A program made the position numbers and the translations under genes. The notes under the pieces are model-generated. The model had not been told where the DNA came from. It ran no database searches and was given only the letters and a program-made list of their open reading frames with translations. Source: Escherichia coli (GTDB lineage Bacteria > Pseudomonadota > Gammaproteobacteria > Enterobacterales > Enterobacteriaceae). From it: a DNA stretch of 64,000 bases. This document shows, piece after piece, positions 42,274 to 63,060 of the stretch; the first letter of the stretch is position 1; each line of letters begins with the position of its first letter. The stretch lies in the NCBI RefSeq assembly GCF_003991155.1, contig NZ_CP031293.1; one strand, 5' to 3'.

Positions 42274-42888
42274 TTATCTGTTTGAGCCTAAAGGGATCTC
42301 AGGGTCTGGCTCATGAGTAATTCTGTTTCGTAAATCTCTGCGAATAATTTCAATGGACCAGAACCAGACTAAATGTCCAAAAATTTCAGAAACATTCTCA
42401 TACCACGGGAGATCAAACAGAGGTGGCGTCAGTCCCATGAGAGGGAATGAAATCATATGAACAAAAAGTTGGGCTAAAGCACCTGCCAGTAAGCCCTGCC
42501 AGAGTTTAATTTTTGGAAATACTTCAGCGACCACACAATAACCGACAGCAAACACTATCGAAAAGATAATGTGCGTAACACCAACCCAGTTAAAGACATG
42601 CCCGGCAAAGGTATAAACAGCCGCATTGGGATCTGTCAGCCCCAGCCAGTCTCGAAGAAAAATATACGGAGGATTGAGAAAATTACGGGAGCAATCAATT
42701 TGCCCAGCAGCCCTGATTAATGATTCCGGACCACACGCTGCATTAAACATATCCACCGGGCTACGTGGCGGCAATGGAACTTCAGCCCCCCACTTCACAA
42801 ATGCGGAAACAACGCCAGCAATCAGCCCAATGAATGCAGCAAGACCATAACGTCTGCGGTTCGGTGGAGTTTGTTCAAATATATTCAT
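42274..42888 (-). CDS. yagU: inner-membrane protein YagU (DUF1440)
   Basis: 204 aa with several TM helices; synteny. Confidence 0.85.
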
Positions 42889-43095
42889 ATTTACCCTGTT
42901 TGTTTAATTATGTTGTACACCTCTTCAGGAGTATTCATAAAACAAGACAAATGTAAAGAACTGTATTGTTTTGTATAACCACATGGTTACCTAATCGCCA
43001 ATTAATATAAGCTCCATTATTTCTCCATATTTTTATGTTAGAAGTGACAAGGAGAAATGTAATGTTTCTCTCAGAGAATATAAATCATTCCTTTT

Positions 43096-43121
43096 GCCCA
43101 CCTTAATGGTGGGCTTTTTTA
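43096..43121 (+). terminator. orphan terminator-like hairpin (GCCCACC-TTAAT-GGTGGGC + TTTTTT)
   Basis: Perfect 7-bp GC-rich stem followed by T6; no obvious upstream + strand gene, so possibly left over from lost DNA. Confidence 0.4.
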
Positions 43122-43276
43122 TGCAAAACCTGAACGTCCTGTGGTATTCCTCTGGCATAATGATTTTCGCGATTAACCAACAACCAGACCAGCAAAGACG
43201 CCACCACAAGCACAGCAACATCCTTCAGGCTTGCCACACCCCATACGTGCGGCTCAAAGCCGCCATGGCATATTAA

Positions 43277-43474
43277 TCCGCTTGCCATTTTCGAACAGCT
43301 GATTGGTTTAGTCCGGTGTTTCCCTGCTTGCACTTAAAAATGAGCGGATGGGAAACTCTCGAAATGGTTCGTCGATATGCTCACCTTTCAGTCAGGCATT
43401 TCACCGCGCACGCGAGCAAAATCAAAGGCACAAGAGGAGAACGTAGTTTACTGAAATGTGAGGTAACTTATTGA
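43277..43474 (+). pseudogene. possible C-terminal fragment of a tyrosine recombinase (integrase remnant)
   Basis: Frame translates ...GWETLEMVRRYAHLSVRHF..., resembling the catalytic-Tyr C-terminal motif (ERYAHL) of phage integrases; no N-terminal part present; ends 6 bp before the attR-like repeat. Confidence 0.3.
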
Positions 43475-43480
43475 TTTAAA

Positions 43481-43496
43481 TGGTGCGATAATAGGA
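43481..43496. repeat. attR-like imperfect direct repeat of the thrW 3' end (TGGTGCGATAATAGGA)
   Basis: Matches the tRNA 3' end at 63061-63077 (TGGTGCCGATAATAGGA) except for a 1-nt deletion; same orientation. Confidence 0.55.
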
Positions 43497-43557
43497 ACAA
43501 TACACATAGGCGATAAGCTTTGTTTTTGTTGCCTTTTTTATTGTTCATTTTTTATAG

Positions 43558-43580
43558 ATACCCCCAAAAGTACCCCCATA
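43558..43580. repeat. island-terminal 23-mer ATACCCCCAAAAGTACCCCCATA (putative arm-type integrase site)
   Basis: 22 of 23 identical to 62927-62949 at the other island end, same orientation. Confidence 0.5.
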
Positions 43581-43697
43581 TCTTTTTCCGCCCCTGAAAT
43601 TTGGTTGTTATTCATACAGCATATCAGGCGGTAACGCTCTCCCTTTAACCCACTTATTGTATGATAGTGCTATCCCACAATAAGGAATCAGCCAGCC

Positions 43698-44057
43698 ATG
43701 AGAATGACCAGTCGCAAAAAAGAGATACTTAGCTACTTTGAACCGGATAACCTCGAATGGGTGACTGGTGAGATTGGTGCGCCGCCGTTCGATGTGTCGG
43801 GTGTGGCCTACCTGCTTCATGGCATGGTGTCGTTCGATAAGCGTCACCAGCTCGAATCAACCCGGCGAACACTGGAAAGCATGGTTGCTGGTGGACTGCT
43901 TGAGCGGGTGACAGTGTATGAATCGCGCCAGATACGGCGCGGCGGTGATACTAACGCAACGGTCGTGCGCTACGGTTTACCCGGTCAGTGCGCTGTTATG
44001 CGCGATACTGGCGGCGCTGACAACGCAATATCAGGTGAATACATGCGGGTCAGTTAA
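43698..44057 (+). CDS. hypothetical protein (119 aa), first island gene at the attR side
   Basis: ORF with AAGGA SD; upstream inverted repeat CTTATTGT..ACAATAAG; 3' end overlaps the convergent gene by 8 bp. Confidence 0.5.
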   Translation: MRMTSRKKEILSYFEPDNLEWVTGEIGAPPFDVSGVAYLLHGMVSFDKRHQLESTRRTLESMVAGGLLERVTVYESRQIRRGGDTNATVVRYGLPGQCAVMRDTGGADNAISGEYMRVS

Positions 44058-44592
44058 TAGCCTGCAATCTGTCGTTGATGCGGCTCAGGTCGTAAACCCG
44101 GCGTTCAATATCCAGCATCAGGAAATTGTGGATCTCGGCCTGCTCAGGATTATCAGACTCTCTGGCCTGTAATAGCAATTCATTGTAACCATGCAAGCCG
44201 CCTGAGTTTTCCGCCGGGGTGGTGCCTTTCCCACGCAGGCAGCTAATGGGCTGATTACTCGTATCGTGTGTTTGCTTCTCCAGCACAATGACGCAATCCC
44301 ACCAGTCGCCAAAGTCATACGTGTAAACCAGCTTGTCACCCTCATTCTGGAGCGCCGCCCATAGTGGCGTGATTGCCGCGTTACCCATGCTTTCATCCTC
44401 ACCCCATACGCGATACTCGCTACCTGGATCACCTTTACGCCCTTTCTCGAACATATACAGGTGTTCGTCATTCCAGCCAAAAGCTAACTGGATCACGGCA
44501 TGAAGTTTACTAAAGGGGATTTGCTCTGGAACCAGCACACGCCGCCATATAGGTGGTTTGCTGTCTCGGATGGTTATCTTTAGCTGGTACAT
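44050..44592 (-). CDS. pRiA4b ORF-3-like family protein (180 aa)
   Basis: N-terminal motif YQLKITIRDSKPPIWRRVLVP as I recall for the PRiA4_ORF3 domain family; function unknown. Confidence 0.6.
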   Translation of the reverse strand: MYQLKITIRDSKPPIWRRVLVPEQIPFSKLHAVIQLAFGWNDEHLYMFEKGRKGDPGSEYRVWGEDESMGNAAITPLWAALQNEGDKLVYTYDFGDWWDCVIVLEKQTHDTSNQPISCLRGKGTTPAENSGGLHGYNELLLQARESDNPEQAEIHNFLMLDIERRVYDLSRINDRLQAIN

Positions 44593-44712
44593 GCAAATCC
44601 TGAATAAATGCGAATCGGAAGGATAACGATACTGACGTACTCACAATTCTGTAAAGGTGAATAAAGGAAATTTGCTTAATACGCATAAGTTACATGTGGA
44701 ATAATCCCATAT

Positions 44713-44898
44713 CTACCTGCGCGGCGCTGGCTTCTTCCACTGGTAGGCAGGTGCTCGCATCATTTCGCGGAACCTGTCGCGCCGGGCTATATCGGCATTA
44801 ACTGATCGTTCTATCTCCCGTTGATCTGCCTGTGTAAGCTGGTGGCCTCCGTGCTCAAGTTTGGCGATGGTCAATAAGGCTATTTCGCGTGGTGTCAT
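44713..44898 (-). CDS. hypothetical small protein (61 aa)
   Basis: ORF with AGAGGG SD-like sequence; no recognisable domain. Confidence 0.35.
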   Translation of the reverse strand: MTPREIALLTIAKLEHGGHQLTQADQREIERSVNADIARRDRFREMMRAPAYQWKKPAPRR

Positions 44899-45123
44899 AC
44901 GTCATACCCTCTGGAAGGATGAAACACGCCCGGATTAAATTTCATTTTTCGCGGGTATAAAAAAACGATGGGGCGGGCAGTCCCGGATAGTCAGGGCTGT
45001 AGAGATTTGACTACCCCCTCCCCACTGGATTCAGGTTACTGCTATTCCGTTAAGCGCTGCTTACGGGGATAGCTGCGTTGTGATTTTGACCATTCAGGTC
45101 GCCGCTATTTCCTCACCGATTGG

Positions 45124-45156
45124 GTGCTACGCGCGCGCGTACTTGTCCCGAAATAC
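45124..45156. repeat. copy 1 of repeat TGCTACGCGCGCGTACTTGTC..AAATA.CAG (contains palindrome ACGCGCGCGT)
   Basis: Near-identical to 46518-46550; related partial copies at 46755-46770 and 46807-46835. Confidence 0.6.
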
Positions 45157-45195
45157 CAGAAACCGCCAGCCAGAGGATGATTTCCCTCTGGTGGT

Positions 45196-45477
45196 CTACC
45201 TTTGCCTCTTGCCGCCATTTAACCGGAAGGCGTTACCGTTCGGTTGCGCTATCCCCATGCGGTGTTGCGTTTCGGTAACAGCTTTATGCAGGTCGCCAAA
45301 TTCCTCAACCTTCACGGGCGGGCGCTTCACGTTCTCCAGACACGTTTCACGGCGGCGCTTTATCCATTCCCGATCATCGTCCTCGGTGCATAACAGCATG
45401 ACTTCCATCCATCGTGCGGCAGCTCTCCGGTATAGCCCTTTTGACTCCAGCTCTTCAGCTTTCCTGTCCCTTATCAT
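45196..45477 (-). CDS. PerC-family transcriptional activator-like protein (93 aa)
   Basis: N-terminal motif MIRDRKAEELESKGLYRRAAARWMEVM resembles PerC/Pch family as I recall it; GAGG SD and TATAAT -10 upstream. Confidence 0.5.
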   Translation of the reverse strand: MIRDRKAEELESKGLYRRAAARWMEVMLLCTEDDDREWIKRRRETCLENVKRPPVKVEEFGDLHKAVTETQHRMGIAQPNGNAFRLNGGKRQR

Positions 45478-45513
45478 TTCTGCCTCTCAGATTATATAGA
45501 TAAGCAAAAAGGT

Positions 45514-45634
45514 GTTGGTTCAGTTGGTTCAGTTGGTTCAATTTGTAAAGATCGTTGTTTTTATTGTGTTTTTTCTGAAATGTTGAACCAACATCAACTC
45601 ATTTTGAACCAACACAGCCCAGCTCTGAACCAAC
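45514..45634. repeat. iteron module A: 3 tandem GTTGGTTCA, AT-rich spacer, 3 copies of the complementary TGAACCAAC
   Basis: Copies at 45514-22, 45523-31, 45532-40 and complementary copies at 45584-92, 45605-13, 45626-34. Confidence 0.7.
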
Positions 45635-45736
45635 AACACAGCGATAGCTTTGTGATTGGTCCGTTATTTTCTGGCTGATATTTGAGCGTATAACAGTGTT
45701 ATACAGTGGTATACTGTATGGATATTACTCACTGAT

Positions 45737-46192
45737 ATGGTCTTTGCAATGAGCAAATCTAATCTGATCGCGTTCCGCATCCCATCTGAATTGCAGGATG
45801 AGTTTAATCGGTCTGTTCTCGCTTCTGGAGGGGATAAAACCTCCTGGCTTGTTGATGCGATTCGCATGAAGCTGGGACAGCCGGAAAAGTCTATTGATTC
45901 ACGAATGCTTGGGCTGGTGGAGCGCATGGAAAAAGCCGCTGCGTCGCTTATTGCCGGAAAGCCGAACATCCCACCAAAGCCATATAACGAAACGGCAGTT
46001 ATAAAGATCATTGCCGATACCATCCAACAGGGATTTGATAATGGGCGTGTGATAGCTGAACGGATCAATGAAGCAGGCTATCAAACAAAAGCTGGTAAAG
46101 CGTGGGATAAAGATATTTACAGCGCGTGGAAGCGTCAGGGAAGCAATGCTGAAAAGTTAAAAGCGGTGATTGATTGTAAGGTCAGCGTATAA
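45737..46192 (+). CDS. putative ribbon-helix-helix (CopG/Arc-like) DNA-binding protein with extended C-terminus (151 aa)
   Basis: N-terminal IAFRIPSELQDEFNRSV...KTSWLVDAIRMKL resembles an RHH beta-strand plus helix; start may be the Met at 45749. Confidence 0.45.
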   Translation: MVFAMSKSNLIAFRIPSELQDEFNRSVLASGGDKTSWLVDAIRMKLGQPEKSIDSRMLGLVERMEKAAASLIAGKPNIPPKPYNETAVIKIIADTIQQGFDNGRVIAERINEAGYQTKAGKAWDKDIYSAWKRQGSNAEKLKAVIDCKVSV

Positions 46193-46271
46193 ACATGAGT
46201 GCCCATTGGAAAGCTGCTTGGGCCAATACCTTTATACACCAGCAGGTGGTGACGATAGGTGAGGATTAGGC

Positions 46272-46493
46272 ATGAAAGGCAGAACGCCACACATTGAACA
46301 TCAAGCCAACCACTTCTCGGATGTTCGCAATGAGATGATTGCCATTCGCGGTGATATGCACGGCTTGGAGCGTCGAATTATTGATAAGATTGATGAAAAT
46401 AGAGATAAGGCCAGTGAAAATCAAAAGTGGATCATCGGCCTGTTGATTTTATCAATTCTTATCCCGCTACTTATCGCATTGGTCACAAAATGA
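46272..46493 (+). CDS. small tail-anchored membrane protein (73 aa)
   Basis: GAGGA SD; charged coiled-coil-like N-terminus and single C-terminal TM helix (WIIGLLILSILIPLLIALV). Confidence 0.5.
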   Translation: MKGRTPHIEHQANHFSDVRNEMIAIRGDMHGLERRIIDKIDENRDKASENQKWIIGLLILSILIPLLIALVTK

Positions 46494-46517
46494 ATATCCA
46501 ATGTGTATGCTGTCGAT

Positions 46518-46550
46518 GCTACGCGCGCGTACTTGTCGCAAAATATCAGG
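46518..46550. repeat. copy 2 of the ACGCGCGCGT-ACTTGTC repeat
   Basis: TGCTACGCGCGCGTACTTGTCGCAAAATATCAG, near-identical to copy 1. Confidence 0.6.
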
Positions 46551-46754
46551 CAAAGGCCAGATTCAGAAATTCGTGATAACCACCAGCACAACATGAGAGG
46601 TCATGTAACGCGATTTATCACACCAGATACATGTGATTGGTGTACCCGCATAAAACATCGTCATAGCGCGTCCTGTGCGCATATACGCCGATAATCAACA
46701 CATCACCACCACTCTGTCTCATGTAGAGAACAGTTTTATGGTACTCCCCTCCAT

Positions 46755-46835
46755 CGTGCGCGTACTGGTCGGACGTAGTTGCAAAATTTTTTGCAACTGA
46801 TACCCCTCGCGCGCGTACTGGTCACGAAATTGGTG
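46755..46835. repeat. copies 3 and 4 (partial) of the GCGCGCGTACTGGTC repeat flanking palindrome GTTGCAAAATTTTTTGCAAC
   Basis: CGTGCGCGTACTGGTC at 46755-46770; CGCGCGCGTACTGGTCACGAAATTGGTG at 46807-46835; 20-bp perfect palindrome at 46777-46796. Confidence 0.5.
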
Positions 46836-47036
46836 TTTTGCTGTGGCAGTGATATCAGAAAAATCTTCCTGTTTCACATAAAGCGGATATGCGCGTAATG
46901 TAACGGCCCCATCAACTGGGAGCGGATTTGAGCCCGAATGTGTAGGCAATGTCACTTAACGTTTGTCGCATACCTTCCAGAAAAAGCGATTCATGAATAA
47001 TAGGGGCATGAATGCCCGGCGTACCGGGCTTATTAG

Positions 47037-47735
47037 TTAATTTGGTGCTTTAGGGTCAACATTAAAAGTTATATCACCTTCTGTATTTTTCCCGGCATAG
47101 CTAGCGGCTATTCTCGCCAACCCTTTGTAATCAGCAATTCCATCAGACTGTTGCGAGACGACTGAGCTACCAACTTTCCATAACATATTAATCTGCCGAT
47201 TATTGAGATAAGCCTTGGCATCAAACGACTGGAGTATCACCCCTGCGCCGTAGAACGTGTCCGTCACAGTTGTGTTATACGCGCCAGTAATTCCATAAGT
47301 AGGCGTATAAACTGTTGTTGCCGTTCCAGTGGTATTAGCTGTACCGTAGCCACCACCATAACTATTGAACGTGGTGTTCGAGTTTCCGTACGTTGTTGCT
47401 GAGCTCACACCAGTTTGCCCGTATATTGGGATGGTTACATTACGAGTATTTGAAATGGCCCCGCTTCTCAAAAAGTTCAAGAGAATTACCTGGTCAGCCA
47501 ATTTTTCATCTTTAACTTGTGTATATCCTTGGCTTGATAAACTGGCGGCTACTACCGTAGCTATTTGAGTGTATTCAATCTGTTTGGTGTTCCAAAGTTC
47601 TTGGCTTGCGGGGATGATCAAGAACTTCTTACCGACAGATTGCCCGGAAGATAAAGCATTGACCGTTACTAACGGTTTTTGTACGCATCCAGCCAATAAT
47701 GACAGGGATAATATTAAAAGAAGATTTTTAATCAT
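47037..47735 (-). CDS. lipoprotein (232 aa) with Gly/Thr/Tyr-rich central region
   Basis: Lipobox LLAGC in signal peptide MIKNLLLILSLSLLAGCVQ; low-complexity middle; tandem hairpins downstream of the stop. Confidence 0.7.
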   Translation of the reverse strand: MIKNLLLILSLSLLAGCVQKPLVTVNALSSGQSVGKKFLIIPASQELWNTKQIEYTQIATVVAASLSSQGYTQVKDEKLADQVILLNFLRSGAISNTRNVTIPIYGQTGVSSATTYGNSNTTFNSYGGGYGTANTTGTATTVYTPTYGITGAYNTTVTDTFYGAGVILQSFDAKAYLNNRQINMLWKVGSSVVSQQSDGIADYKGLARIAASYAGKNTEGDITFNVDPKAPN

Positions 47736-47885
47736 GATAATCTCACCTAAGAATTGCGTGGTTATAAATTATCATCACTGTAAGCGAATGTAAGCCACAG
47801 GCTCGTAATGTGATATGGAATTTTGATAGTTGGCTCAATATCAGTATGCCGTCCTTGGCTATTATGGTTTTGTTAGTTAGAGCGT

Positions 47886-50612
47886 CTATTCCCATTCGCT
47901 AACATCTTTCATGCCACTGAGGGTAGCTACAATCCCGGCCCTTGTCAGTTTCACGAATTCTTCAGCCCCAACGGCATCACGAATTGCTTTCATGGCAATT
48001 TTATTGGCCGAAAATCGTTTCTCTGCTGCGGCGATCGCTGCTGGTGATGCCCCTGCGCGCACTGCTTTTGTAGCTTCCTGAACGGCTTTCTCTATCGCAT
48101 ATCGACCACTTCTTGTCGCCCCAATCTTAGCCACAGCATTTCTTAGCGCGCCACCAGCAACCAAACCACTAATCGAACCAATTACACCACCGCCAAAGCC
48201 TCCAGCGATCGCACCTGACTGTTGAACTCCGTTCATAATCACGCCGACGATCTTTGGAAGGCCTGAATCGAGCGTTTTGAGAGCCTCAGTTGTTCTTCCC
48301 GTGCGCTCTACGTATCGCTGCGGTCTGGTACTGGCTTTAGCGAGTACACCGAACTCTTTCATCATTCTACCGAGATCTGGCGCATGACGACTGATGGCGT
48401 TTACATTCTGCTGGGTCATGAGCTTGGCAAAATACTGGATACCTGACTCTTCACCGATTCCTCCCTTCTCTCCCTGCGCCACAGCATGCTGAAGAATAGA
48501 TGCTATTGCAGGTTGGCGTTCTGCTTCCGGCAGCGCGGAGATAAGACGGTGAAAAGCTCCCGTTCCAGTGTTTGCGGATGCCTTAAGCGTATCGGCACCT
48601 TTTCTTACCATAGCGTCTGATGCGAGATCTCGACCAAAAACAGATTCGGCATTTTGTTTGGCGATAATGTAACTTTTAGAGAGATCGTTAGCTTTCTGCC
48701 ATTCTGTGAGGAAGTTTCCTTTTTCAGCCATGATGCGCATGTCATCAGTGATAGCTCTGCGCATTTCTCCGGCAATCCGGGCGGCATTGGCCTTACCTGC
48801 CCGGGTGTTTGCTTGTTCAGCATCAGCAAACTTAGCACGCCATGCCTTCATCCCGTCGAAGGTTATGCCGCCACCTTGGTTGTTGGCAGCCTGAAACTGT
48901 TTCATCTCCGGGCTGAGTGGAACATTGGCTGCTTTTTCTGCTTGGACGACAGCCATCCCATTACTCATTTTCATCCTTTCGCGTGGCATCGTGCTTCGCA
49001 GTTCTGCCCATGCCATATTCTCTGCTGTTTTCATATCACTGAGGCTCGCGATGATGCGCTCTTTAATTGCTGCGCTTTTTTCTGATGCGCTTCCAGACTC
49101 AGCACCGAAATCAGACAACTGCTTATTCAACTTTGAGGATATTTCATTGAAGGCCGTAAGGTGAGCATCCTGAACATTCCCAGGAGTTGATGCCAGAACA
49201 CCTTCTGCTTGGGCAATTCCACGACTACCTGAGCGCATTCCAGGCGTCAGGGTGTTGATATTAATACCAGTGATTTTCGCCGCCTTAGCGACATCATCTC
49301 TGACGTTTGATGCCTGCGATGCGATATGCTCTCGGCCTACGGCAGAACGCGCTGCTTTCGATACATCATTGGCGGTTTCCAGAGTATTTGCTGCCCCTAA
49401 CACATGGCCTGATTGATTTGTATTACTCCGCAATACATCTCGCATTACGTCACTGGCTGTCTGTCCGCTCTTTATTAAAGCGCGTGCTCCTAGCGATCCT
49501 GCTAGGCCAATACCTGTCTCTTTTGCTAGGTCTTCTGGGCTGATCTGCCCGTTCTTTTGGGCGTTCACCAATGTACCTGGCAGGTTTTCTGCCAACATAC
49601 TAGCCACCTTTGTGGCCGCACGTTCAGCACGTGGAGCGTTGGCAACTGAAGAAGCTGCGGTAGCTGCCTTTCCTGCACCTAATCCTGTAATAAGGTAAGG
49701 TGCTAGCTGCTCACCAGCCTGCGCGTATGGATCTGTAGGTTGGTCTACTGGGCGAAAGACAGGTGATATGGGCGTGTATGTGCCATCACCCACACCAAGC
49801 TTCTGAGCTGCCCATGCTCCGGCTGATTGCGCCGCATTGACTACCCCCACGCCTGCGTCCATTACATCAAACGGTATATTAGCAATCCCTCTGGCCATCT
49901 GCTCTGGCGCAGCTTTCAGTCCTGGCGAAAGATATTCCATCTCAGGATTAAGGTTAGACTTGGCTACTTGCTGCTGCGGTTCCCCGGCATTTTCATCGGC
50001 GAGAAACTGAGCTCTTTTCTGCTCCCATGAACTGGCTGTTGGTAGTCCTGCTTCTATGTTCTTAAATTGCTGACGTTTTGCTTCCCATGCAGAAATATCT
50101 CCCACCTGAGAGATTTCTTTATCAAGCTCTGAGTAGTCAGGCTGCTGAAGATTGCGATGTTGACTGGTTTGTGCAAACTGCAAGATTTCACTGTCATCAG
50201 GGATTATTCCGGCATCTGCAAATTTACTTACGTAATTAGCCGTTTCATCTGGCAGTGTAGATTTACCGTTTCTGACGGCATTAATACGAGCATAGCCAGA
50301 ATTATACCCAGCCAATGCCATACCTATATCACCAAATCGCTTCATTCCTTTATTGAGATGGTTTGCTGCGATATCCATTTGCTTTTCAAATGGCAGTGAG
50401 CGCGGATCTGTTCCACGATAACCAGCATCACTCATTACTGAGGGCATCAGTTGAGCAAATCCTCTAGCTCCTTTCGGTGACTCGGCACTTCCGTTACCAC
50501 TAGATTCATTGCCAACTAATGTTTCCATCGTCCCTGATGGGAAACCATATTTTTCATCGAGATGACGGGAATAGGCTTTCTGTTTTTCTGTCAGTTGTGC
50601 CATCATTGCCAT
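47886..50612 (-). CDS. large protein (908 aa) with N-terminal lytic transglycosylase (SLT) domain and long alpha-helical Ala/Lys-rich body
   Basis: SLT motifs near N-terminus (GNESSGN...ESPKGARGFAQLMP...ALAGYNSGYARI); start overlaps upstream gene stop. Confidence 0.8.
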   Translation of the reverse strand: MAMMAQLTEKQKAYSRHLDEKYGFPSGTMETLVGNESSGNGSAESPKGARGFAQLMPSVMSDAGYRGTDPRSLPFEKQMDIAANHLNKGMKRFGDIGMALAGYNSGYARINAVRNGKSTLPDETANYVSKFADAGIIPDDSEILQFAQTSQHRNLQQPDYSELDKEISQVGDISAWEAKRQQFKNIEAGLPTASSWEQKRAQFLADENAGEPQQQVAKSNLNPEMEYLSPGLKAAPEQMARGIANIPFDVMDAGVGVVNAAQSAGAWAAQKLGVGDGTYTPISPVFRPVDQPTDPYAQAGEQLAPYLITGLGAGKAATAASSVANAPRAERAATKVASMLAENLPGTLVNAQKNGQISPEDLAKETGIGLAGSLGARALIKSGQTASDVMRDVLRSNTNQSGHVLGAANTLETANDVSKAARSAVGREHIASQASNVRDDVAKAAKITGININTLTPGMRSGSRGIAQAEGVLASTPGNVQDAHLTAFNEISSKLNKQLSDFGAESGSASEKSAAIKERIIASLSDMKTAENMAWAELRSTMPRERMKMSNGMAVVQAEKAANVPLSPEMKQFQAANNQGGGITFDGMKAWRAKFADAEQANTRAGKANAARIAGEMRRAITDDMRIMAEKGNFLTEWQKANDLSKSYIIAKQNAESVFGRDLASDAMVRKGADTLKASANTGTGAFHRLISALPEAERQPAIASILQHAVAQGEKGGIGEESGIQYFAKLMTQQNVNAISRHAPDLGRMMKEFGVLAKASTRPQRYVERTGRTTEALKTLDSGLPKIVGVIMNGVQQSGAIAGGFGGGVIGSISGLVAGGALRNAVAKIGATRSGRYAIEKAVQEATKAVRAGASPAAIAAAEKRFSANKIAMKAIRDAVGAEEFVKLTRAGIVATLSGMKDVSEWE

Positions 50613-51922
50613 CCCTTAAGTTTTGCCTGATAGTAACTTTCCGGCAGATAGCCATGTGCGGTCACATAATCCTTAACCAGTGAAGGATCCTGCAACAGCA
50701 TTTTGGTATCAGTTTCTTCGTCCTTAGATTTGGTTACAGGAATACCGAGCCCGGCAATCTGTCGTTTCTGCATTCGAATAATTACGTCCTGCGCTTTATT
50801 CAACTCTCGCAAAAATGCCTCATTGCTGGTTGCTGACTTAATGCCATTTTGAGATTGCATAAGGGCAGCCCTTTCCCCTTCGGTTGGGTTAGAGCCAAAA
50901 GTCCCTTTGAGGCTAGGCAGAATAACCTTTAGGTTGTATTCATCAGCTTTGGCGCGTAGGCTTCGTGTGTCTTCTGCTACATCAGGAAGGAATCCAAACC
51001 CCAGCGTCAGGGGGTTATAGTTCTGCGAGCGGGTAACGGCCGAAGGATGTTTCCCTACAATTCCCGCCAGTTCATGACCCACTTCAAGCGCAGAGTTCAA
51101 GGAGTCGATGTTACCTACAACAGTATTAATTTTATCGTTCATCTTCTCCACTTTCGCCTGCTGTACCTTGCTCAGTTCAGCATTGAGCTTGTCTCTCTCG
51201 ATGTCATTTTGAGCACGTCCAAGTCGTGCTTTCAGAACCATTTCTCTCGTGCGTAGTTGGTTATCGGATAGGACTTTGAACTGCTCCATATCGAGACGTC
51301 GATTACCCTGTTCCGCATTAACCTGAGCATTATATGCGGATGTATCTGCGTTCTGCTGTGCAATGCTCTGCCCTTGCTGCTTCTCTTGAACACTAAAGTA
51401 ACTATTTGGATCAGCATGGAGGTGGATGAGGTCAGTGATTCTGTTGAATTCCTGTGGGTCATTCTGCCAAGACTGATAAACCTCTTCAGCAGGAAGACCA
51501 AATCGCTGTAATACTGGATTTGCCTGCTGAATGGCCTTCTGCATGGTCAGTGGATCTCCAGTTTGTGACGCAAGACGCAGATTCATGGCAGCGTCAGCGG
51601 TCTGTCGATTTTGCTCAGCATCAATGAATCCCATCTGTTTTTGAGAATCAGCCATAAACTGGGGATACTGGGCCATTAACTTCTGCACGCCAACACGATC
51701 ATTATTAGCTACCGCACTACCCAACCGTGCCTGATATTCTTTTAACTGCTGGGAAATTTGCGCCTGCTGATTAATCTCAGCAACGCCTCTTAGCCCCTGT
51801 AGCGCCATTAAACCTACGTTTGGCTGCTGCTGATACTGCACAGGCTGAGGAACGGAAGAACGAGGAGCATTATCATTTTGCGGTGCCATGCTAGGCAGCC
51901 CGCCAAGTTGCCATGTCGCCAT
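50603..51922 (-). CDS. Gln-rich coiled-coil protein (439 aa), co-transcribed with the SLT protein
   Basis: Long ORF, translationally coupled on both sides; Q/A/N-rich helical composition. Confidence 0.7.
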   Translation of the reverse strand: MATWQLGGLPSMAPQNDNAPRSSVPQPVQYQQQPNVGLMALQGLRGVAEINQQAQISQQLKEYQARLGSAVANNDRVGVQKLMAQYPQFMADSQKQMGFIDAEQNRQTADAAMNLRLASQTGDPLTMQKAIQQANPVLQRFGLPAEEVYQSWQNDPQEFNRITDLIHLHADPNSYFSVQEKQQGQSIAQQNADTSAYNAQVNAEQGNRRLDMEQFKVLSDNQLRTREMVLKARLGRAQNDIERDKLNAELSKVQQAKVEKMNDKINTVVGNIDSLNSALEVGHELAGIVGKHPSAVTRSQNYNPLTLGFGFLPDVAEDTRSLRAKADEYNLKVILPSLKGTFGSNPTEGERAALMQSQNGIKSATSNEAFLRELNKAQDVIIRMQKRQIAGLGIPVTKSKDEETDTKMLLQDPSLVKDYVTAHGYLPESYYQAKLKGWQ

Positions 51923-52599
51923 TAGAATCCAAGCCCCCCAACAAGACCAATAAGCCCACCACCAATAGCGCCGGCCGCAGTTCCTATTCCAGGAACAACG
52001 GAACCAAGTTGCGCACCCGCTAAAGCGCCTGATGCTGCCCCACCAATACCACGCGCAAGACTGGATGGCTGCTGCGCCTGACCTGCACGAATAGCGCCAA
52101 GCCCCTGCAAGAGTTGTCCGGTATTATTGGCGTAGTTTTGCCCTGCCGTTGCCTGCCCTGATGCCGCATTCATCCCGACATTTAGCAGGTTTCCATAATT
52201 TTGCATTTGCCCACTAAGCCAATTGTTATAAAGCATGGGCGCAATGGAAGATAACTGGTTACTGGTAGCTGTTGAGCCAAGCCCCCCGGTAGCTTCTGCT
52301 GAGACAAGGTTCTGATAACGGGCCTGATCTGCCTGTGTTTTATATAAACCAGAACCAAAGAAATCATTCGCGGCTTTATTCTGCCCTTCCAGAGTCATCA
52401 GTCCTTGCAGTTGTTGTAAAGCAGGCAATCCGACTTCTGCATACGGCTTGAGATTATTCATCACCGTATTCCACTGCTCGCGCTGCAAATCAATTGCCTG
52501 CTGCTGGGCCTTCGCCTGAGCTTTAGAGGCACCACCATCACCGCCTTTTTCGTATACGGCACGATTGAGATGTTTATGAGCTATATGGGTAATTAACAT
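51922..52599 (-). CDS. Gly-rich protein (225 aa) with C-terminal Gly/Ala hydrophobic tail
   Basis: C-terminus GIGGAASGALAGAQLGSVVPGIGTAAGAIGGGLIGLVGGLGF; coupled to neighbours. Confidence 0.65.
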   Translation of the reverse strand: MLITHIAHKHLNRAVYEKGGDGGASKAQAKAQQQAIDLQREQWNTVMNNLKPYAEVGLPALQQLQGLMTLEGQNKAANDFFGSGLYKTQADQARYQNLVSAEATGGLGSTATSNQLSSIAPMLYNNWLSGQMQNYGNLLNVGMNAASGQATAGQNYANNTGQLLQGLGAIRAGQAQQPSSLARGIGGAASGALAGAQLGSVVPGIGTAAGAIGGGLIGLVGGLGF

Positions 52600-53054
52600 T
52601 CGCTGAATTCCTTATATTGTTGCCGAGTTAACTGATAAAGCGTTACGCCGACGGGTTTACCACATCTGATATAAGCATCATCAAGGTGACCAACACGGGT
52701 AGCGCCAAGCAAACGGATAATTGCCCGTCCATATTTTGTGGTGTCAGGAACCATAGTGATGCTGTTAAGGAATGGTGAGTTTTCGAGAAGCCATTTGCAG
52801 AATAATCGATGCCCTTGCAGTGCATATTCACCACGGAATCCGGGGTCGTACACCGCATGGCATTCAACAACGCTATGCCAGAAGTTACGCACTTCATGAA
52901 CGCCAGCCAGCACTAATCCTTCGTAGATGCCGAGATATACCGCATCAGGCTTGATGTAGTACGTGTGCCCCGGCTCAACAATATTTTCGGTATTGCCTGG
53001 CTCGTTAAGAAAGGCCTGTAATCGCACAGGGTTATCAATAAATTTTAGTTCCAT
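52593..53054 (-). CDS. hypothetical protein (153 aa), first large gene of the SLT operon
   Basis: ORF overlapping the downstream gene start; no recognised motif. Confidence 0.6.
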   Translation of the reverse strand: MELKFIDNPVRLQAFLNEPGNTENIVEPGHTYYIKPDAVYLGIYEGLVLAGVHEVRNFWHSVVECHAVYDPGFRGEYALQGHRLFCKWLLENSPFLNSITMVPDTTKYGRAIIRLLGATRVGHLDDAYIRCGKPVGVTLYQLTRQQYKEFSEC

Positions 53055-53070
53055 GCGATGCCATCCATTT

Positions 53071-53232
53071 TCACATACAGCCTGCCAGCGCCTTATCTAT
53101 TAACCCTCGTGCAATTTCATGCAGAGTTGGCGCTACTCCAATTCCTGATTTTTTACGCTGCTCTTCCTGAATTTTCTTTATCGCTTCCATTTGCTTCTCA
53201 CTTATCAATACCGGCTTTACTGAAATAGCCAT
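53071..53232 (-). CDS. small putative DNA-binding protein (53 aa, possibly ribbon-helix-helix)
   Basis: ORF 53071-53361; start placed at MAISVKPVL with GGGGG SD 4-5 nt upstream; LexA-like box just upstream. Confidence 0.45.
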   Translation of the reverse strand: MAISVKPVLISEKQMEAIKKIQEEQRKKSGIGVAPTLHEIARGLIDKALAGCM

Positions 53233-53248
53233 AACGCCCCCCTTAGAA

Positions 53249-53264
53249 CTGTATAAAACAACAG
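53249..53264. promoter_or_regulatory. candidate LexA (SOS) box CTGTATAAAACAACAG
   Basis: CTGT-N8-ACAG with AT-rich centre; about 17 bp upstream of the 53-aa gene start; nearby TATAAT-like hexamer on the minus strand. Confidence 0.5.
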
Positions 53265-53681
53265 TTATTATAGTTTCACAAATCGCAATATTCATCATCG
53301 TAATTGCAAAATATGAAACAAATAGCACAAAAAAATGCCACCGCTCAGTAGCTGGTGGCATCGTTCTGTGTGTCAGGTTTTGACAGGTTTTTTATGGACT
53401 CTAAAAACTATATTTATGGTATCGCATTACTCTTCACGGCAGGTGCTTTTCAGTTCTGCCCTTGCTTCTGGCTCCATTGGTAATTTGATTCGCGATCAGC
53501 TATGCGGATGGTTTGCTGAACAGGCATAACAACTTCTCAGAGGCTGTTTTTTGAACTACGAAAATTTCGTAGTGCTCACTTTCAAAAACGTCACGCCCTT
53601 GTACACAGGATTTTACGAAAGTCTCGTAAAACACTCTCTGATGCCAGCCAGGTGTTGTGCGCATCAATTCAGTCACATTGT

Positions 53682-53792
53682 GTCGGTTCAAAATACCGTG
53701 TTGTTGGTTCAGTGTTGGTTCAATAAAAAGAATAAAATCCTTATAAAACAATACACTTTACAAATTGAACCAACTGAACCAACTGAACCAAC
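53682..53792. repeat. iteron module B: inverted, diverged copy of module A
   Basis: GTCGGTTCA 53682-90, GTTGGTTCA 53704-12 and 53714-22, then tandem TGAACCAAC at 53766-74, 53775-83, 53784-92; spacer begins with reverse complement of the module A spacer (ATTTGTAAAG). Confidence 0.7.
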
Positions 53793-53817
53793 ACCTTTTC
53801 TACGCACATGAAGAAGC

Positions 53818-56577
53818 TCATTCTTCAGATGAGTTATAATCTCCTGGCTGGTAATTGAGTACATAAACGTTTATTTGTCGTCCCTGAATACGTGGTGATT
53901 TTCTTTGGTATCCACGACCGCTGTTTGGTGGGGTTAGCATCCCGGCTTTTTTCAACACTTCAGCAAACTGTTTTGCGTTGAAACCACATGCGATCTCCTT
54001 TTCAAATGTGGCCGGGAATGTGTAGAAAATCATTGGGCTTTCGTCATGTTCTCCACGCTGACGGTATCCGGCTAAATCTTTGATGGGCAAATCTGCCGGG
54101 CTGTATGGAAATGGTGCAAAACGGCTAAGCCCATAGGCATTAAGAAATGCCTCCGTTTGTTCAATAATCTGCTGATGCTCTTTGTTACCTGTGCCGAACT
54201 CGCGCAACCATGCGTTATAGCTGTGCTGTATCGCATCACGGCATGTCTGAGCATCCCAGCCTGTTACAACCTCGCCTAACAACAATGCGGCCTCCAGAAT
54301 GGCAAATCGCGCGGCTACACGGTGAACCTGCTCACCATAATCGGATGGGATCAGGCTTCTCCATCTGCTTTCGCAATCACGAACGGTTTTAATAGCCTGT
54401 TGCTGGTGGTGTGCCAGCCATTTAATCCACTCACGCCCGGACGCGCCGTGGTGATGCTGGTAAGCGTCTTTCAGTGCGTCTGCGTGCTGTTTTCCGTTCT
54501 GGTAATCGTGAAAGCGTACTGCTTTACTCAACGGAATATTCAGCAGTCGCACCAGTTGCCCGGCTTTGGTTTTTCGCCCGGAAGTAGCGATAAATGTTTC
54601 TAAATCCATTTCTCCGGTGCTGATTGCCACTGTACGCCAGCGTTTTAGATCCCGGTTTCCACCATCTTTAGCGCCTTGCAGTTTCCCTACACCGTTAAAT
54701 AACGCATAGGCAGACTGTGAAACGCTGACAGGATCAGCGCCCTGACCAACTTCATCAAGCGGCATTAGTCCGTCATTGTGGGCGGCGGCCTCATTTGCCA
54801 GCCCCAGCGCGGTTCCGTACCACGTCAGCCGCAGTAAATCAGGGTTGCCGTATAAGCTGCTCGCCACGTTTGCCGTGGTGGTCTTACCTGCGCTCGACTG
54901 CTCATAGAAATGAATGCCGAACCCGTCAGCGCCCACCAGCCCAATCAATGGCGCTGCCAGTGCTGCGCCGATCCCGGTCATCATTGAATAGTTACCAAAG
55001 GCCAGACGCGCCACGTTATCACGCCAGCTTTTCGCGCTCCCTGAGACGGTATATCCGGCTGCGGCTGAGCTTCTCCCGCTGAACAGCACAGGATTTTCAG
55101 GTGTTCCGATGATTTCCCCATCAGGCATGATGTACGCTCCGCATTGCCAGCCAGTGGCATGAGCAACACGCCACAATTCACGAGAGCCACTGCGTTGTAG
55201 CCAGTCTGCCAGTATTGCTCTGAGGCTGCTTTTGGTCGTGACATTTACCCCACCAGCTTTAAGTGTGCGCCATCCTTCACGTTCACCAATATCAGCCAGT
55301 GGAATGGCAGCGGTTGTCGGCGTTTCAGAACCAAACGACAGCCAGCGAAGAATGAGATACTGGTCTTTATCGTCTCTGCCAGTACCGATAACGCTTAACG
55401 GAGAACATAACCAGCTTTCGTTATTGATGATTTCTCCACTCTGGCTGTCAGCTCTCGGAGATACCCAATAAATACCATCCTCGCGGCTTTCTATTCTTGG
55501 TTTCAGTGGGTCGGTATCCATAACCTTAAAATCGCTTCCCTCAATGGTCTGTGGCTCCTGTTTCACGCCATTACCCTGTGGTTGGTACATTGACTTATTG
55601 AACGCTTCTGTGGCGCATTTAATGCCGTGTTTTTGGTGGTAATCATTCCAGTCTGCTTTGTGATCTGTCGGGGGTAATGCCACCCATCCAGAAACAGATA
55701 AAGCTGCTTTTTCTGCTGCTATTCTCCCCGTGTTTTGTCTTCCTTCGCTGTGGTCGTTATCCGCAGCAATGATGATTTGTGCTGAAGGAAATTTATCCCG
55801 CAGTACCTGGGCGACATATAACAGGTTCCCGGCATCAATCGCCGCCACTGTCAGCGCCTCTGGACGAATTAAATGGGCAGATAATGCCGTTGCCAGACCT
55901 TCTGCGATTAAGATGCTCTGTGTTGTTTCTGGTGCGTTTATGGCGTGATATGCCCCCCGCTTTGCTGAACCTGTCAGGAGTCTTTTTTCACCATGTGAGG
56001 TAATAGTCTGTGCTGCTGTGACTGCGCCGGATTTATCCACCAGCGCCAGCAACAGAGATCCATCGGGCAACACGGGGAATGTAAAATCACCTACCCCTTT
56101 CGCAACCAGATAATCAGATTTGCCGTTTACAGCCTTTCTGCGCATGTCATCAAACTGACGGGAAAACGTATCCCGTCTTTGTTGTTCGTCCTTCTCTGCC
56201 CTTTTCAGGCGCTCCTGTTCGCGTCGCTGGCGCTCGGTTTCCAGTTGTTCCCGTTTCTGGCTGGTGGCTTCTGGTGTTTCCGTTGTCCGGTAATCAATAC
56301 CCAGAACATCAGCGGCAAGAAGCGCCGCCTCTGTTGTGTCGCAGTTATTTACGCGTTTAATTAAATCCAGCCCATCACCAGCGCCGCACTGATTACAGAT
56401 GAAGCTACCGCGCCCGTTGTCATCGAACCGGAATCGATCTTTGCCCCCACATGCAGGGCAGGGAGCATGACGGCGCGGAGAGTCAGGGACATTTATGTTC
56501 AGGCAGCCCAGCACATGAGGCCAGTTGTTTTCAGACGCACTGATAACCTGACGGATAAGATCAATGTTTCGCATCAC
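53818..56577 (-). CDS. primase-helicase (P4 alpha-like): N-terminal zinc-ribbon primase plus C-terminal P-loop helicase/NTPase
   Basis: 919 aa; zinc ribbon CPACGGKDRFRFDD...CNQCGAGDG; Walker A YEQSSAGKTTT. Confidence 0.85.
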   Translation of the reverse strand: MMRNIDLIRQVISASENNWPHVLGCLNINVPDSPRRHAPCPACGGKDRFRFDDNGRGSFICNQCGAGDGLDLIKRVNNCDTTEAALLAADVLGIDYRTTETPEATSQKREQLETERQRREQERLKRAEKDEQQRRDTFSRQFDDMRRKAVNGKSDYLVAKGVGDFTFPVLPDGSLLLALVDKSGAVTAAQTITSHGEKRLLTGSAKRGAYHAINAPETTQSILIAEGLATALSAHLIRPEALTVAAIDAGNLLYVAQVLRDKFPSAQIIIAADNDHSEGRQNTGRIAAEKAALSVSGWVALPPTDHKADWNDYHQKHGIKCATEAFNKSMYQPQGNGVKQEPQTIEGSDFKVMDTDPLKPRIESREDGIYWVSPRADSQSGEIINNESWLCSPLSVIGTGRDDKDQYLILRWLSFGSETPTTAAIPLADIGEREGWRTLKAGGVNVTTKSSLRAILADWLQRSGSRELWRVAHATGWQCGAYIMPDGEIIGTPENPVLFSGRSSAAAGYTVSGSAKSWRDNVARLAFGNYSMMTGIGAALAAPLIGLVGADGFGIHFYEQSSAGKTTTANVASSLYGNPDLLRLTWYGTALGLANEAAAHNDGLMPLDEVGQGADPVSVSQSAYALFNGVGKLQGAKDGGNRDLKRWRTVAISTGEMDLETFIATSGRKTKAGQLVRLLNIPLSKAVRFHDYQNGKQHADALKDAYQHHHGASGREWIKWLAHHQQQAIKTVRDCESRWRSLIPSDYGEQVHRVAARFAILEAALLLGEVVTGWDAQTCRDAIQHSYNAWLREFGTGNKEHQQIIEQTEAFLNAYGLSRFAPFPYSPADLPIKDLAGYRQRGEHDESPMIFYTFPATFEKEIACGFNAKQFAEVLKKAGMLTPPNSGRGYQRKSPRIQGRQINVYVLNYQPGDYNSSEE

Positions 56578-56932
56578 CGTACCCCACGTGGTCTATAGCG
56601 TTTGCGATATGGCTAACCAGCATCTGCCACTTGGTTATTCCGTAATCAGTCAGCATGCCATCATTGTTTAGCCACATATCAAATTCAGCGGTTGTCGCAA
56701 GTTTCCACTTATCGCCGTGGACAGTCCTCATTGCTGGGTACATGAATGCGCAAATCAGATCACAAACATCTGACGGCTTCAGAGATGTAGTAATGGTGCG
56801 TCCCTCTGGCGTCTGAATTGCCATTTTCTCTTCACCAGTAGAATGAAGGTTATGAATCCACACAGCACCAGCAATCTTTGCCACCTGCTCTCCGATTGCG
56901 GAGCTAAGCGCCATTTCTGCATTTTCACGCAT
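56561..56932 (-). CDS. hypothetical protein (123 aa), overlaps primase start
   Basis: ORF in coupled chain; 3' end overlaps primase start by 17 nt. Confidence 0.55.
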   Translation of the reverse strand: MRENAEMALSSAIGEQVAKIAGAVWIHNLHSTGEEKMAIQTPEGRTITTSLKPSDVCDLICAFMYPAMRTVHGDKWKLATTAEFDMWLNNDGMLTDYGITKWQMLVSHIANAIDHVGYGDAKH

Positions 56933-57266
56933 GAGAACCTCCCGCTACAGTTGCGCCCATGTCATTAACCATGCTTTGCCATATCTCACGCCCGACGTCA
57001 GTCAATCCGTCCTTAGTGACGCAACGTTCAAGAAGCTCGATCCCCACGGTTTCCCACTGCGGGTAGAACACTTTCATGGCTGCCAGTGTGTAGCTATCGA
57101 TCAGGCTGCGAACGCCTTTTACTCCATTGACGATTTCCACACGGACGGCCTCGCCGTCCGCATCAACCATGAAATAGTCCCCGCCGCTGGTGGAGGTAAT
57201 GTGGTTATACAGTGCCGACGCATACTTATTTGCCAGCGCATTCAGTCGGAAATTTTTAGTAATCAT
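56925..57266 (-). CDS. hypothetical protein (113 aa)
   Basis: ORF in coupled chain; 8-nt overlap with downstream gene. Confidence 0.55.
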   Translation of the reverse strand: MITKNFRLNALANKYASALYNHITSTSGGDYFMVDADGEAVRVEIVNGVKGVRSLIDSYTLAAMKVFYPQWETVGIELLERCVTKDGLTDVGREIWQSMVNDMGATVAGGSHA

Positions 57267-57276
57267 GGCTCCATCC

Positions 57277-57879
57277 TCAGTGCGTCACTGGTTCCGCTGG
57301 CATGCCGTTTTCATTCAGTTCAGCTATAAAGCTGTTGTGAAGTTCAGCAAGCGTTTCACGCCCAAATGGAGTCAGTGCTCCTTGTTCCACATCCATCATG
57401 GCTCTGTAGAAAATAATGGCGCGTTCTGTGCCAGACTCGATGCCAAAACGTTCTATCATCGCGCCCTCAATGTTGTTTGCCATAGCGAGGCGCTCTGCTA
57501 CTGGATACAGCGGCATGGCGACGATGCCGTTGGAATAAACAGCCACTTCGGAAGGATTGCCAGTATCATCAATGATGCTGACAGTGCCGTTTTCCTCTCT
57601 CATTTCCAGCATGAATACTGTTGCGATCAGCCATCTCCACATAATGACGTTATGCTGTGATGTGTAATCGAAATATCCCTGGTTACCGCCATCGGCAATA
57701 GCGAGATGTATTGACATACCTTCATCTGGTTTATCGTCATAATCCCCGGCATCCAGACGATTTACGGCATCAATATATGAGATGGCCTCAACGCGTTCTG
57801 TCATGCCATCGTTGCTGCGGTACATGATGTTTACGCCGTCAGGCGTTGCTTCTGCATGGAAAGTTAAGAAATTATTCAT
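57277..57879 (-). CDS. hypothetical protein (200 aa)
   Basis: ORF 57277-57984; start placed at MNNFLTFHAEA where ATG overlaps upstream stop (CATGAATAA). Confidence 0.55.
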   Translation of the reverse strand: MNNFLTFHAEATPDGVNIMYRSNDGMTERVEAISYIDAVNRLDAGDYDDKPDEGMSIHLAIADGGNQGYFDYTSQHNVIMWRWLIATVFMLEMREENGTVSIIDDTGNPSEVAVYSNGIVAMPLYPVAERLAMANNIEGAMIERFGIESGTERAIIFYRAMMDVEQGALTPFGRETLAELHNSFIAELNENGMPAEPVTH

Positions 57880-58093
57880 GTTTCGCCTCGCCTGAATGAT
57901 TCTGTAACTCATATTTGCCCAACAATTCGTCCGCTTCCTGAATAGCTTCTGGTACGCCATTGAGCAGTGACATAACCGCGCCAATCATTAACTTGTCTCT
58001 GTTGCTGGGGCTGGCCCCTTCAAGCCAGAACCCTAAAACAGTCTGAACCTGTTCGATGCGACATTGCGCTTCAATGAGCTGGATGTTGGTCAT
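57872..58093 (-). CDS. hypothetical small protein (73 aa)
   Basis: Start overlaps upstream stop (ATGA). Confidence 0.5.
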   Translation of the reverse strand: MTNIQLIEAQCRIEQVQTVLGFWLEGASPSNRDKLMIGAVMSLLNGVPEAIQEADELLGKYELQNHSGEAKHE

Positions 58094-58353
58094 TTCGCAC
58101 TCTCCACATCGATTAAACCGATATCTATCAGGGAGGTAACTTTTTGTAGCCAGCTATTGATTACTGTCGCCTGTTCCCCTCCCACCGAGGGAACAATCTC
58201 ATTCATCACATGAACCAGACCTGTGCGCGCTCTGGTAAGCCGTTCAGTCGCGCAATCTGCGGGAGTGAATGTGTCTGGATATGGCTCTTCACGCCCCAGC
58301 AATGATTCAATTTCCAGCTCACACGGATGACGATAAATTAAGTTGATATTCAT
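58090..58353 (-). CDS. hypothetical small protein (87 aa)
   Basis: Start overlaps upstream stop (ATGA). Confidence 0.5.
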   Translation of the reverse strand: MNINLIYRHPCELEIESLLGREEPYPDTFTPADCATERLTRARTGLVHVMNEIVPSVGGEQATVINSWLQKVTSLIDIGLIDVESAK

Positions 58354-58544
58354 TTTTCACCCCCAAGAATTACCAGCTCGGCACGGGCATCGTTAACCAA
58401 AGATGAGCACGCTTTAATCGCATCCACGACATCAGCAGCGTCCATTTCTTCAGCCGAAAGACTGACAGCAACCAGGACAGCCGCTGCTTGCTCGATTAAT
58501 TGAAGTGCGGACGTAAGTCGAGGGGCATTAATTGAGTTATTCAT
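58350..58544 (-). CDS. hypothetical small acidic protein (64 aa)
   Basis: ORF 58350-58601; start placed at [10 protein letters not shown] with G-rich SD; overlaps upstream stop by 8 nt. Confidence 0.5.
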   Translation of the reverse strand: MNNSINAPRLTSALQLIEQAAAVLVAVSLSAEEMDAADVVDAIKACSSLVNDARAELVILGGEK

Positions 58545-58755
58545 TGGTTGCCCCCGTTTTTCCTGGCATTTCGCCACCTTCCAGCAGGAAATGAACGTCA
58601 CGAACGGCGAGATCCAATATCGCGAGTAACGCCTTCAGTCTTTCGTCTCGTGAGGGAGAGTTGCTCACCAGAATGTCGTTAATCACTTCTGTCAGTGTGA
58701 TGATCTGGCTTGTGCGTTCGAGGGGATCCATATGCACATCGTAGGTTTTAATCAT
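58537..58755 (-). CDS. hypothetical small protein (72 aa)
   Basis: Start MIKTYDV preceded by GGAGG (6-nt spacer); ATG overlaps stop of the 58748-58942 ORF; in frame with the long 58537-59604 ORF. Confidence 0.5.
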   Translation of the reverse strand: MIKTYDVHMDPLERTSQIITLTEVINDILVSNSPSRDERLKALLAILDLAVRDVHFLLEGGEMPGKTGATNE

Positions 58756-60606: not shown

Positions 60607-60618
60607 TTTCAGTCTCCG

Positions 60619-62895: not shown

Positions 62896-62926
62896 TTGGG
62901 GGTACCTCCACTAAACCGAACAGCAA

Positions 62927-62949: not shown

Positions 62950-62967
62950 TGACCGTAGATTTTGAGG

Positions 62968-63043: not shown

Positions 63044-63060
63044 TTGGGGAGATGTTTGAA

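Follow-up and report, generated by a model that had tools for sequence, protein, structure and literature searches.

At the far end of a mobile island in Escherichia coli, a gene for a 119-aa protein and a gene for a 180-aa protein run towards each other and overlap at their 3' ends. Does this arrangement denote a functional pair, such as a defence or exclusion system carried as accessory cargo at the distal end, as the original prediction proposed, or do two unrelated genes lie side by side? We addressed this question in a window of 64,000 nucleotides (contig NZ_CP031293.1, assembly GCF_003991155.1), by which we mean the whole stretch of DNA analysed. We lean towards the second answer, with a fair amount of doubt left: the overlapping genes would be two unrelated things, an autoregulated winged-helix (wHTH) backbone regulator and an independent PF07929 cargo cassette. 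The features that the argument requires are given below in positions of the window.

43487 to 43496, no strand assigned: att core, distal copy, which is the island boundary; GATAATAGGA = TCCTATTATC
43559 to 43578, plus strand: pair of TACCCCCA repeats with a spacing of 12 nt, likely integrase sites of the arm type
43653 to 43684, no strand assigned: imperfect inverted repeat 15-2-15, CTTATTGTATGATAG-TG-CTATCCCACAATAAG, putative operator
43698 to 44057, plus strand: gene of the 119-aa protein, ATG start (ORF list and RefSeq CDS)
44050 to 44592, minus strand: gene of the 180-aa PRiA4_ORF3 / MM3350-like single-domain protein, ATG start (ORF list, Pfam and RefSeq CDS)
44051 to 44712, minus strand: cargo cassette of 662 bp, the PF07929 gene with its 120-bp upstream region (by comparison with locus L012)
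44626 to 44655, minus strand: promoter-like TTTACA-18-TATCGT upstream of the PF07929 gene (consensus match only)
44713 to 44898, minus strand: conserved backbone gene of a 61-aa protein, the other flank of the slot (PHROG 7271, an entry with no assigned function)
45196 to 45477, minus strand: PerC/ANR-family regulator, identical to EcCIMP1_025, a demonstrated repressor of LEE1 in Citrobacter rodentium

The window is a piece of E. coli chromosome with the ecp operon, ykgJ, yagU, the island, a tRNA-Thr gene (63061-63136) and proA. The island extends over about 43487-63077 at thrW, hence ~19.6 kb. One copy of the att core is its distal boundary, the second copy (63068-63077) lies in the 3' end of tRNA-Thr, and the integrase gene (61681-62895) lies at the opposite island end, which confirms the placement of the two genes at the distal end. 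Over 43476-45614 and 46513-63300, thus over ~19 of its 19.6 kb, the island shows 98-99% DNA identity to EcCIMP1 of E. coli MP1, a PICI of 19,963 bp (Pick, Stadel & Raivio, ISME J 2025; PMC11773190). EcCIMP1 sits in tRNA-Thr between proA and yagU with the core TCCTATTATC, its junction having been confirmed by sequencing (PMC11773190); insertion site and att core are identical to those of the window island. The PF07929, 61-aa and PerC proteins of both islands are also identical, and the 119-aa proteins are 99% identical. Because of this identity and the presence of both genes, we regard the island as a variant of the published satellite EcCIMP1. It contains an integrase, an AlpA regulator, a primase and att repeats and is devoid of capsid, tail and lysis genes; helper-dependent excision and transfer were shown for the 98-99% identical EcCIMP1, while the window island is known from its sequence. 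The element has already been published, and our finding adds detail to it and no new element type.

Several properties of EcCIMP1 bear on the two genes. The P22-like phage Kapi1 induces and transduces EcCIMP1 as its helper, and EcCIMP1 excision needs the canonical alpA (PMC11773190). In Kapi1 lysogens EcCIMP1 adds superinfection immunity against Kapi1, and PADLOC and DefenseFinder returned nothing on EcCIMP1 according to its authors (PMC11773190). The main text of that paper discusses neither gene of the pair and does not contain the PF07929 family name.

The only island stretch without a match to EcCIMP1 of MP1 is 45615-46512. MP1 carries there alpA_1, an excisionase-like gene that helps Kapi1 excise, whereas the window has an ORF of 151 aa (45737-46192, plus strand), with a ribbon-helix-helix-like N-terminus by eye and no Pfam match, and an ORF of 73 aa (46272-46493, plus strand) with a hydrophobic C-terminus. 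Homologues of the 151-aa protein are encoded directly after the wHTH gene in several genera (loci L016, L017 and L021 of our comparison).

The ORF coordinates agree with the convergent layout first described. The 8-bp overlap covers 44050-44057 (TCAGTTAA), in which TAA closes the plus-strand gene and TCA (= TGA) closes the minus-strand gene. Both genes are under purifying selection when compared with five to six diverged relatives (dN/dS 0.06-0.15; 0.07-0.12 for the PF07929 gene). As initially noted, neither protein has an assigned function: the 119-aa protein has no family match and the PF07929 family has no known function.

A functional pair is contradicted by the occurrence of each gene without the other in related loci; for this reason the two genes do not constitute an obligate two-gene system. 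Homologues of the 119-aa protein were found in 535 E. coli genomes, and 375 of 5426 E. coli genomes have the cassette. PF07929 accompanies the wHTH gene in 4 of the 16 full-length wHTH loci of species representatives and in 10 of 37 informative IMG/VR loci, being absent from 27 while 2 more were too short. The wHTH gene stands without PF07929 in L012-L023, L035 (O157:H7), L047 and the 27 IMG/VR loci, as well as in E. coli ET479, even where its protein is nearly the same (92% and 90% identical in L012 and L014, respectively). PF07929 relatives with 73-77% identity lack an adjacent wHTH gene in L044 and L046, and homologues with 34-38% identity are lone chromosomal genes among housekeeping genes (L037-L041). 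Near-identical E. coli alleles, for their part, almost always occur together (377 vs 375 genomes). Some functional link between the E. coli alleles of both genes may exist, since near-identical alleles travel together and the overlap is kept in diverged loci.

The two genes also differ in what surrounds them. E. coli islands at the yicC/dinD site, with integrases only 27-28% identical to that of the window, bear the same terminal module of PerC, 61-aa, PF07929 and 119-aa genes. The integrase and wHTH genes are found at opposite ends in L002 and L035 (yicC/dinD site) and in many viral contigs of 10-12.7 kb, whose integrases are 26-36% identical to that of the window. One subfamily has a PerC-like gene beyond the wHTH gene, which is consequently not strictly always terminal. 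Taken from these comparisons, the wHTH gene appears as a conserved backbone gene of EcCIMP1-type satellites, integrase-distal and reading inward. The assignment of accessory cargo to the distal end, made for both genes, therefore stands for the PF07929 gene, which occupies a variable slot, and fails for the 119-aa gene, which belongs to the backbone.

The limits of that slot are given by a locus of Shimwellia (L012), in which 27 bp stand in place of the 662-bp cassette and the wHTH gene, whose protein is 92% identical, converges directly on the 61-aa gene. The breakpoints fall at 44050/44051 and 44712/44713. The boundary of the cassette thus falls within the regulator gene, 7 nt from its 3' end, and we take the overlap of 8 bp as a consequence of tight packing and no sign of coupling. 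The cassette is self-contained, with its own ribosome-binding site and promoter-like site. In other loci the slot is occupied by an ars operon, a CapP/ImmA-like peptidase together with a membrane protein, SocA-like, TerS-like or integrase genes, among others. We conclude that the PF07929 gene is an exchangeable single-gene cargo with fast-diverging alleles. In a metagenome contig (L045, 6001-6892), the wHTH protein is 95% identical and the PF07929 protein 61% identical with the 8-bp overlap kept, a discordance that points to either a putative allele replacement within the slot or a fast divergence of the cargo gene.

Among other occupants of the slot, small proteins with a GAPLGNTNAVKHG motif were observed in L014 (10516-10893) and L018 (11207-11653). 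They match no PADLOC or NCBIfam family, and we take their GAPLGNTNAVKHG motif to resemble that of small-terminase-like proteins.

The resemblance of the 180-aa protein to pRiA4b ORF-3 was borne out. Its residues 2-170 align with positions 3-167 of the 173 of the PF07929 model (Pfam, E 1.2e-42), and its residues 1-167 with MM3350 of Methanosarcina mazei (PDB 2I1S; phmmer E 3.2e-21), a full-length single-domain match. No match was obtained in PADLOC, NCBIfam or PHROGs, and there are four phage homologues. The gene context of the distant homologues displays no conserved partner or theme. The literature on PF07929 consists of passenger-gene mentions: family members are passenger genes of ISAzba1-group transposons, with no function assigned (PMC3942029). 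The window gene differs from these in being a cassette in the cargo slot of a satellite. As no PF07929 member has a demonstrated function, nothing can be transferred by homology to the 180-aa protein.

An alternative to two independent genes is a two-component defence, exclusion or TA-like module, with PF07929 as the effector and the wHTH protein as its regulator or antidote, that would explain the superinfection immunity against Kapi1. We consider it improbable. It would account for the adjacency of the two genes, for an overlap kept across alleles whose PF07929 proteins are 61-100% identical (including L033 and L045), for the much faster divergence of PF07929 than of the neighbouring wHTH gene in L045, and for the immunity of EcCIMP1, in which PADLOC and DefenseFinder recognise no known system. 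The location also fits, the 3' ends of PICIs being published hot spots for immune genes (PMC11364771), and the window has a comparable integrase-distal slot with different cargo in related islands; it departs from these hot spots in that the slot cargo is mixed and the PF07929 gene matches no defence family. Against such a module, the wHTH gene does without PF07929 in most lineages, including alleles that are 90-92% identical, PF07929 does without the wHTH gene, the layout is convergent and not that of an operon, and the palindrome travels with the wHTH gene irrespective of the cargo. The search for defence families that had been suggested as a check came out negative, as it did for the authors of EcCIMP1: neither protein matches PADLOC at E<=1, and NCBIfam yields 0 families for either.

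On its own, the PF07929 cassette may have a defence role, because EcCIMP1 has a published and unexplained superinfection-immunity phenotype. That the cassette, alone or under the control of the wHTH protein, determines the immunity which EcCIMP1 confers against Kapi1 seems to us a long shot.

In favour of the reading that we prefer, two unrelated genes, the 119-aa protein can be described as a regulator in its own right. It has no match in Pfam, NCBIfam, PADLOC, PHROGs or PDB sequences, and a profile of its family still finds none in Pfam and PDB sequences; single family members give weak matches to wHTH sequence families (E 0.006-0.08). The family comprises 542 clusters at 90% identity, all named source organisms being Enterobacterales, and a full profile search of 1.84 billion representatives returned 91 matches only. 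An AF2 model built with a 26-sequence alignment was unusable (pLDDT 44), whereas 85 diverse members gave a model with pLDDT 79.5 and pTM 0.69. The latter displays four helices followed by a long beta-hairpin, with no helices after residue 64, that is, the helix-turn-helix and beta-hairpin wing of a winged helix. The most conserved residues (S54, R56, R57, T58 and L59) are in the fourth helix, at the recognition-helix position. The 119-aa protein is hence predicted to be a winged-helix DNA binder of ArsR/MarR-like fold. Had both proteins been confidently annotated as replication or regulatory proteins, the proposal of a defence cargo would have been undermined; half of this applies, the 119-aa protein being a predicted wHTH regulator while PF07929 carries no annotation of function.

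Two relatives of the family are worth recording. The only phage homologue (37% identity) is found in Klebsiella phage vB_KpnP_ZX1 (L042, 4001-4348), where it lies in the early right operon, directly before an anti-repressor gene and behind its own terminator, without the palindrome. A 200-aa family member (P0183) joins the wHTH domain with one of the T5orf172/MUG113 type (Pfam E 1e-11 and 1e-6).

The palindromic element first noticed upstream of the 119-aa gene proved to be an inverted repeat that stands before the family gene in all 23 loci examined, from Escherichia, Enterobacter, Lonsdalea, Shimwellia, Pluralibacter, Serratia, Pantoea, Erwinia, Mixta, Proteus, Yersinia and others. In the window its arms (43653-43667 and 43670-43684) are 15 nt long, 2 nt apart and 87% complementary, with the half-sites TTATTGTA / ACAATAA. 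The repeat ends 13 nt 5' of the ATG; its right arm enters the AAGGA ribosome-binding site (43682-43686) and its left arm contains a -10-like TATGAT (43660-43665). Sigma-70 promoter prediction gave none for the 119-aa gene, and no -35 is recognisable. In all 23 loci the palindrome keeps a fixed distance to the start codon and the sequence further upstream is unrelated between loci; since it is in the same place before every family member examined, it is not due to chance. Furthermore, the fraction of pairing cells is 79.7%, compared with 28-47% after sliding of the partner columns. No covariation beyond a shuffle control was seen, because conservation extends to the sequence of the outer half-sites TTAwTGTA / TACAwTAA. 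The diverged members L006 and L004 keep the dyad with altered inner bases, L006 having two tandem copies, and one IMG/VR variant bears a compensatory change from GATAG/CTATC to GACAG/CTGTC (GACAG-TA-CTGTC). Of 51 exact pattern matches in IMG/VR viral contigs, 40 are followed by a gene of the family within 7-11 nt, and there too the palindrome accompanies the wHTH gene with any kind of cargo. Where islands have other integrases, their homology to the window starts exactly at 43653. The operator region has no match in 50,697 phage genomes.

These properties suggest that the palindrome is most likely the own operator of the 119-aa protein. A dimer of this protein would bind the 15-2-15 repeat over its own -10-like element and ribosome-binding site and would thereby repress its own transcription. 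Repressors of the ArsR/SmtB and MarR types act in this way on their own imperfect inverted-repeat operators. The 119-aa protein differs from them in several respects: it does not belong to their sequence profiles, no metal- or ligand-binding motif is recognisable, a C-terminal dimerisation helix is missing (residues 95-119 are a low-confidence coil in the model), and, with one operator copy in the window, no operon under its control can be recognised. For the same reason a master repressor acting on several operators is not supported. We infer an autoregulated backbone regulator, DNA binding and autorepression included.

In a subfamily (L058, L059, L063, L067, L073, L083, L087-L089 and L035), a PerC-like gene is divergent from the wHTH gene across the palindrome, which could control both genes there. 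The wHTH protein of this subfamily is shorter, with 96-100 aa in viral contigs and 128 aa as annotated in O157:H7 (L035, 12487-13429).

Autoregulation may also matter for the cargo. No intrinsic terminator is predicted at the palindrome or between both genes, so the convergent transcripts would overlap and would run antisense into each other. Autorepression of the regulator would limit this antisense interference and may tune cargo expression.

The position of the 119-aa gene raises a further question, as to whether its product steers the integrase, either as a recombination directionality factor or as an architectural att-site protein. Many excisionases are winged-helix proteins, the distance of the gene to the att core is 157-197 bp and that to the arm-like repeats ~75 bp, and by geometry it would be divergent from int across attP in the excised circle. 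Yet proteins 97-98% identical to it are associated with integrases only 27-28% identical at another att site, and the position of the palindrome is fixed relative to the gene and not to att. Such a role thus appears very unlikely to us. Least probable of all is a 5'-leader RNA hairpin that would mask the ribosome-binding site or stabilise the mRNA in place of a protein operator: the right arm does overlap the AAGGA, the fold reaches -10.3 kcal/mol and the dyad is kept across divergent members, but the fold is ordinary (z -1.5; 15 of 200 shuffles fold equally well), the arms are conserved in sequence with uncompensated one-sided changes at pairs 14/37, 18/33, 19/32 and 24/27, the tandem copies of L006 are operator-like, and the left arm would not be transcribed if its -10-like element were used. 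The autoregulated repressor with its own operator is consequently the reading that we retain for the 119-aa gene. A search of 42800-46600 for known RNA families gave none.

Two previously described proteins of satellites were compared with the 119-aa protein and set aside. RppA, RppB and RppC of E. coli PICIs redirect phage packaging (PMC6739421) and, like the 119-aa protein, are small winged-helix proteins whose genes lie close to the distal end of a Gram-negative PICI. In Rpp, a MerR-like domain at the N-terminus is combined with a coiled-coil dimerisation domain at the C-terminus (144-153 aa), and the model of the 119-aa protein is without the latter. RppA of EcCICFT073 was rejected as a relative (BLASTP E 1.2; hhalign probability 0.2%), and no Rpp homologue was found anywhere in the window. 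Nor is there a lambda-like cosN beside the 119-aa gene, the nearest candidate (45096-45107, 2 mismatches) being within chance expectation, and Kapi1, the helper of this satellite, is P22-like and not a lambdoid cos phage. RgdR is likewise unlike the 119-aa protein, with 99 aa, an RGD motif at residues 20-22 and a location near int.

The surroundings of the pair deserve a few remarks. The motif AAGTACCCCCAT recurs at 62937-62948 beside int, and together with the TACCCCCA repeats it probably provides arm-type integrase sites that flank attP. A terminator-like hairpin with a T-run (43508-43544, plus strand), which separates the att core from the arm-like repeats, is oriented so as to stop chromosomal transcription entering the island. 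Outside the island, on the yagU side, a C-terminal integrase fragment (43316-43474, plus strand) abuts the att copy and is what is left of a tandem neighbour at thrW; in MP1 this place is taken by a Vat/MarR island plus another integrase fragment.

Towards the integrase, a predicted lipoprotein of 232 aa (47037-47735, minus strand), whose signal sequence ends in LAGC, is encoded between an ejection cassette and the distal regulators; it matches no NCBIfam, PADLOC or PHROG family. The cassette (47886-53054, minus strand) encodes P22-like gp14 (head morphogenesis), gp7, gp20 and gp16 ejection/DNA-transfer proteins, assigned to PHROGs 651, 598, 917/2534 and 770, and the gp16-like protein, of 908 aa, carries a lytic transglycosylase domain at its N-terminus. 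Because its helper Kapi1 is P22-like, the satellite may equip helper capsids with ejection proteins of its own. These ejection proteins could also underlie the superinfection immunity.

The finding is real but largely ordinary. The satellite has been described before, the regulator is of a familiar kind although its family is new, and the cargo gene comes from a known family. What emerges is an uncharacterised family of small winged-helix proteins that extends across the Enterobacterales and has a recognisable putative operator. As this family marks the integrase-distal end of EcCIMP1-type satellites, it offers a practical landmark for delimiting such islands and their cargo slot, and the 119-aa protein may be the resident repressor apparently missing so far from Gram-negative PICIs. 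The case also cautions that a functional pair should not be deduced from convergent genes overlapping at their 3' ends. The main lead is the contribution that the PF07929 cassette may make to the published superinfection immunity of EcCIMP1, its exchangeable and fast-diverging nature placing it among the few concrete candidates. If the cassette were indeed the immunity determinant, this would be the first function for a domain family that occurs in bacteria, archaea, transposons and plasmids.
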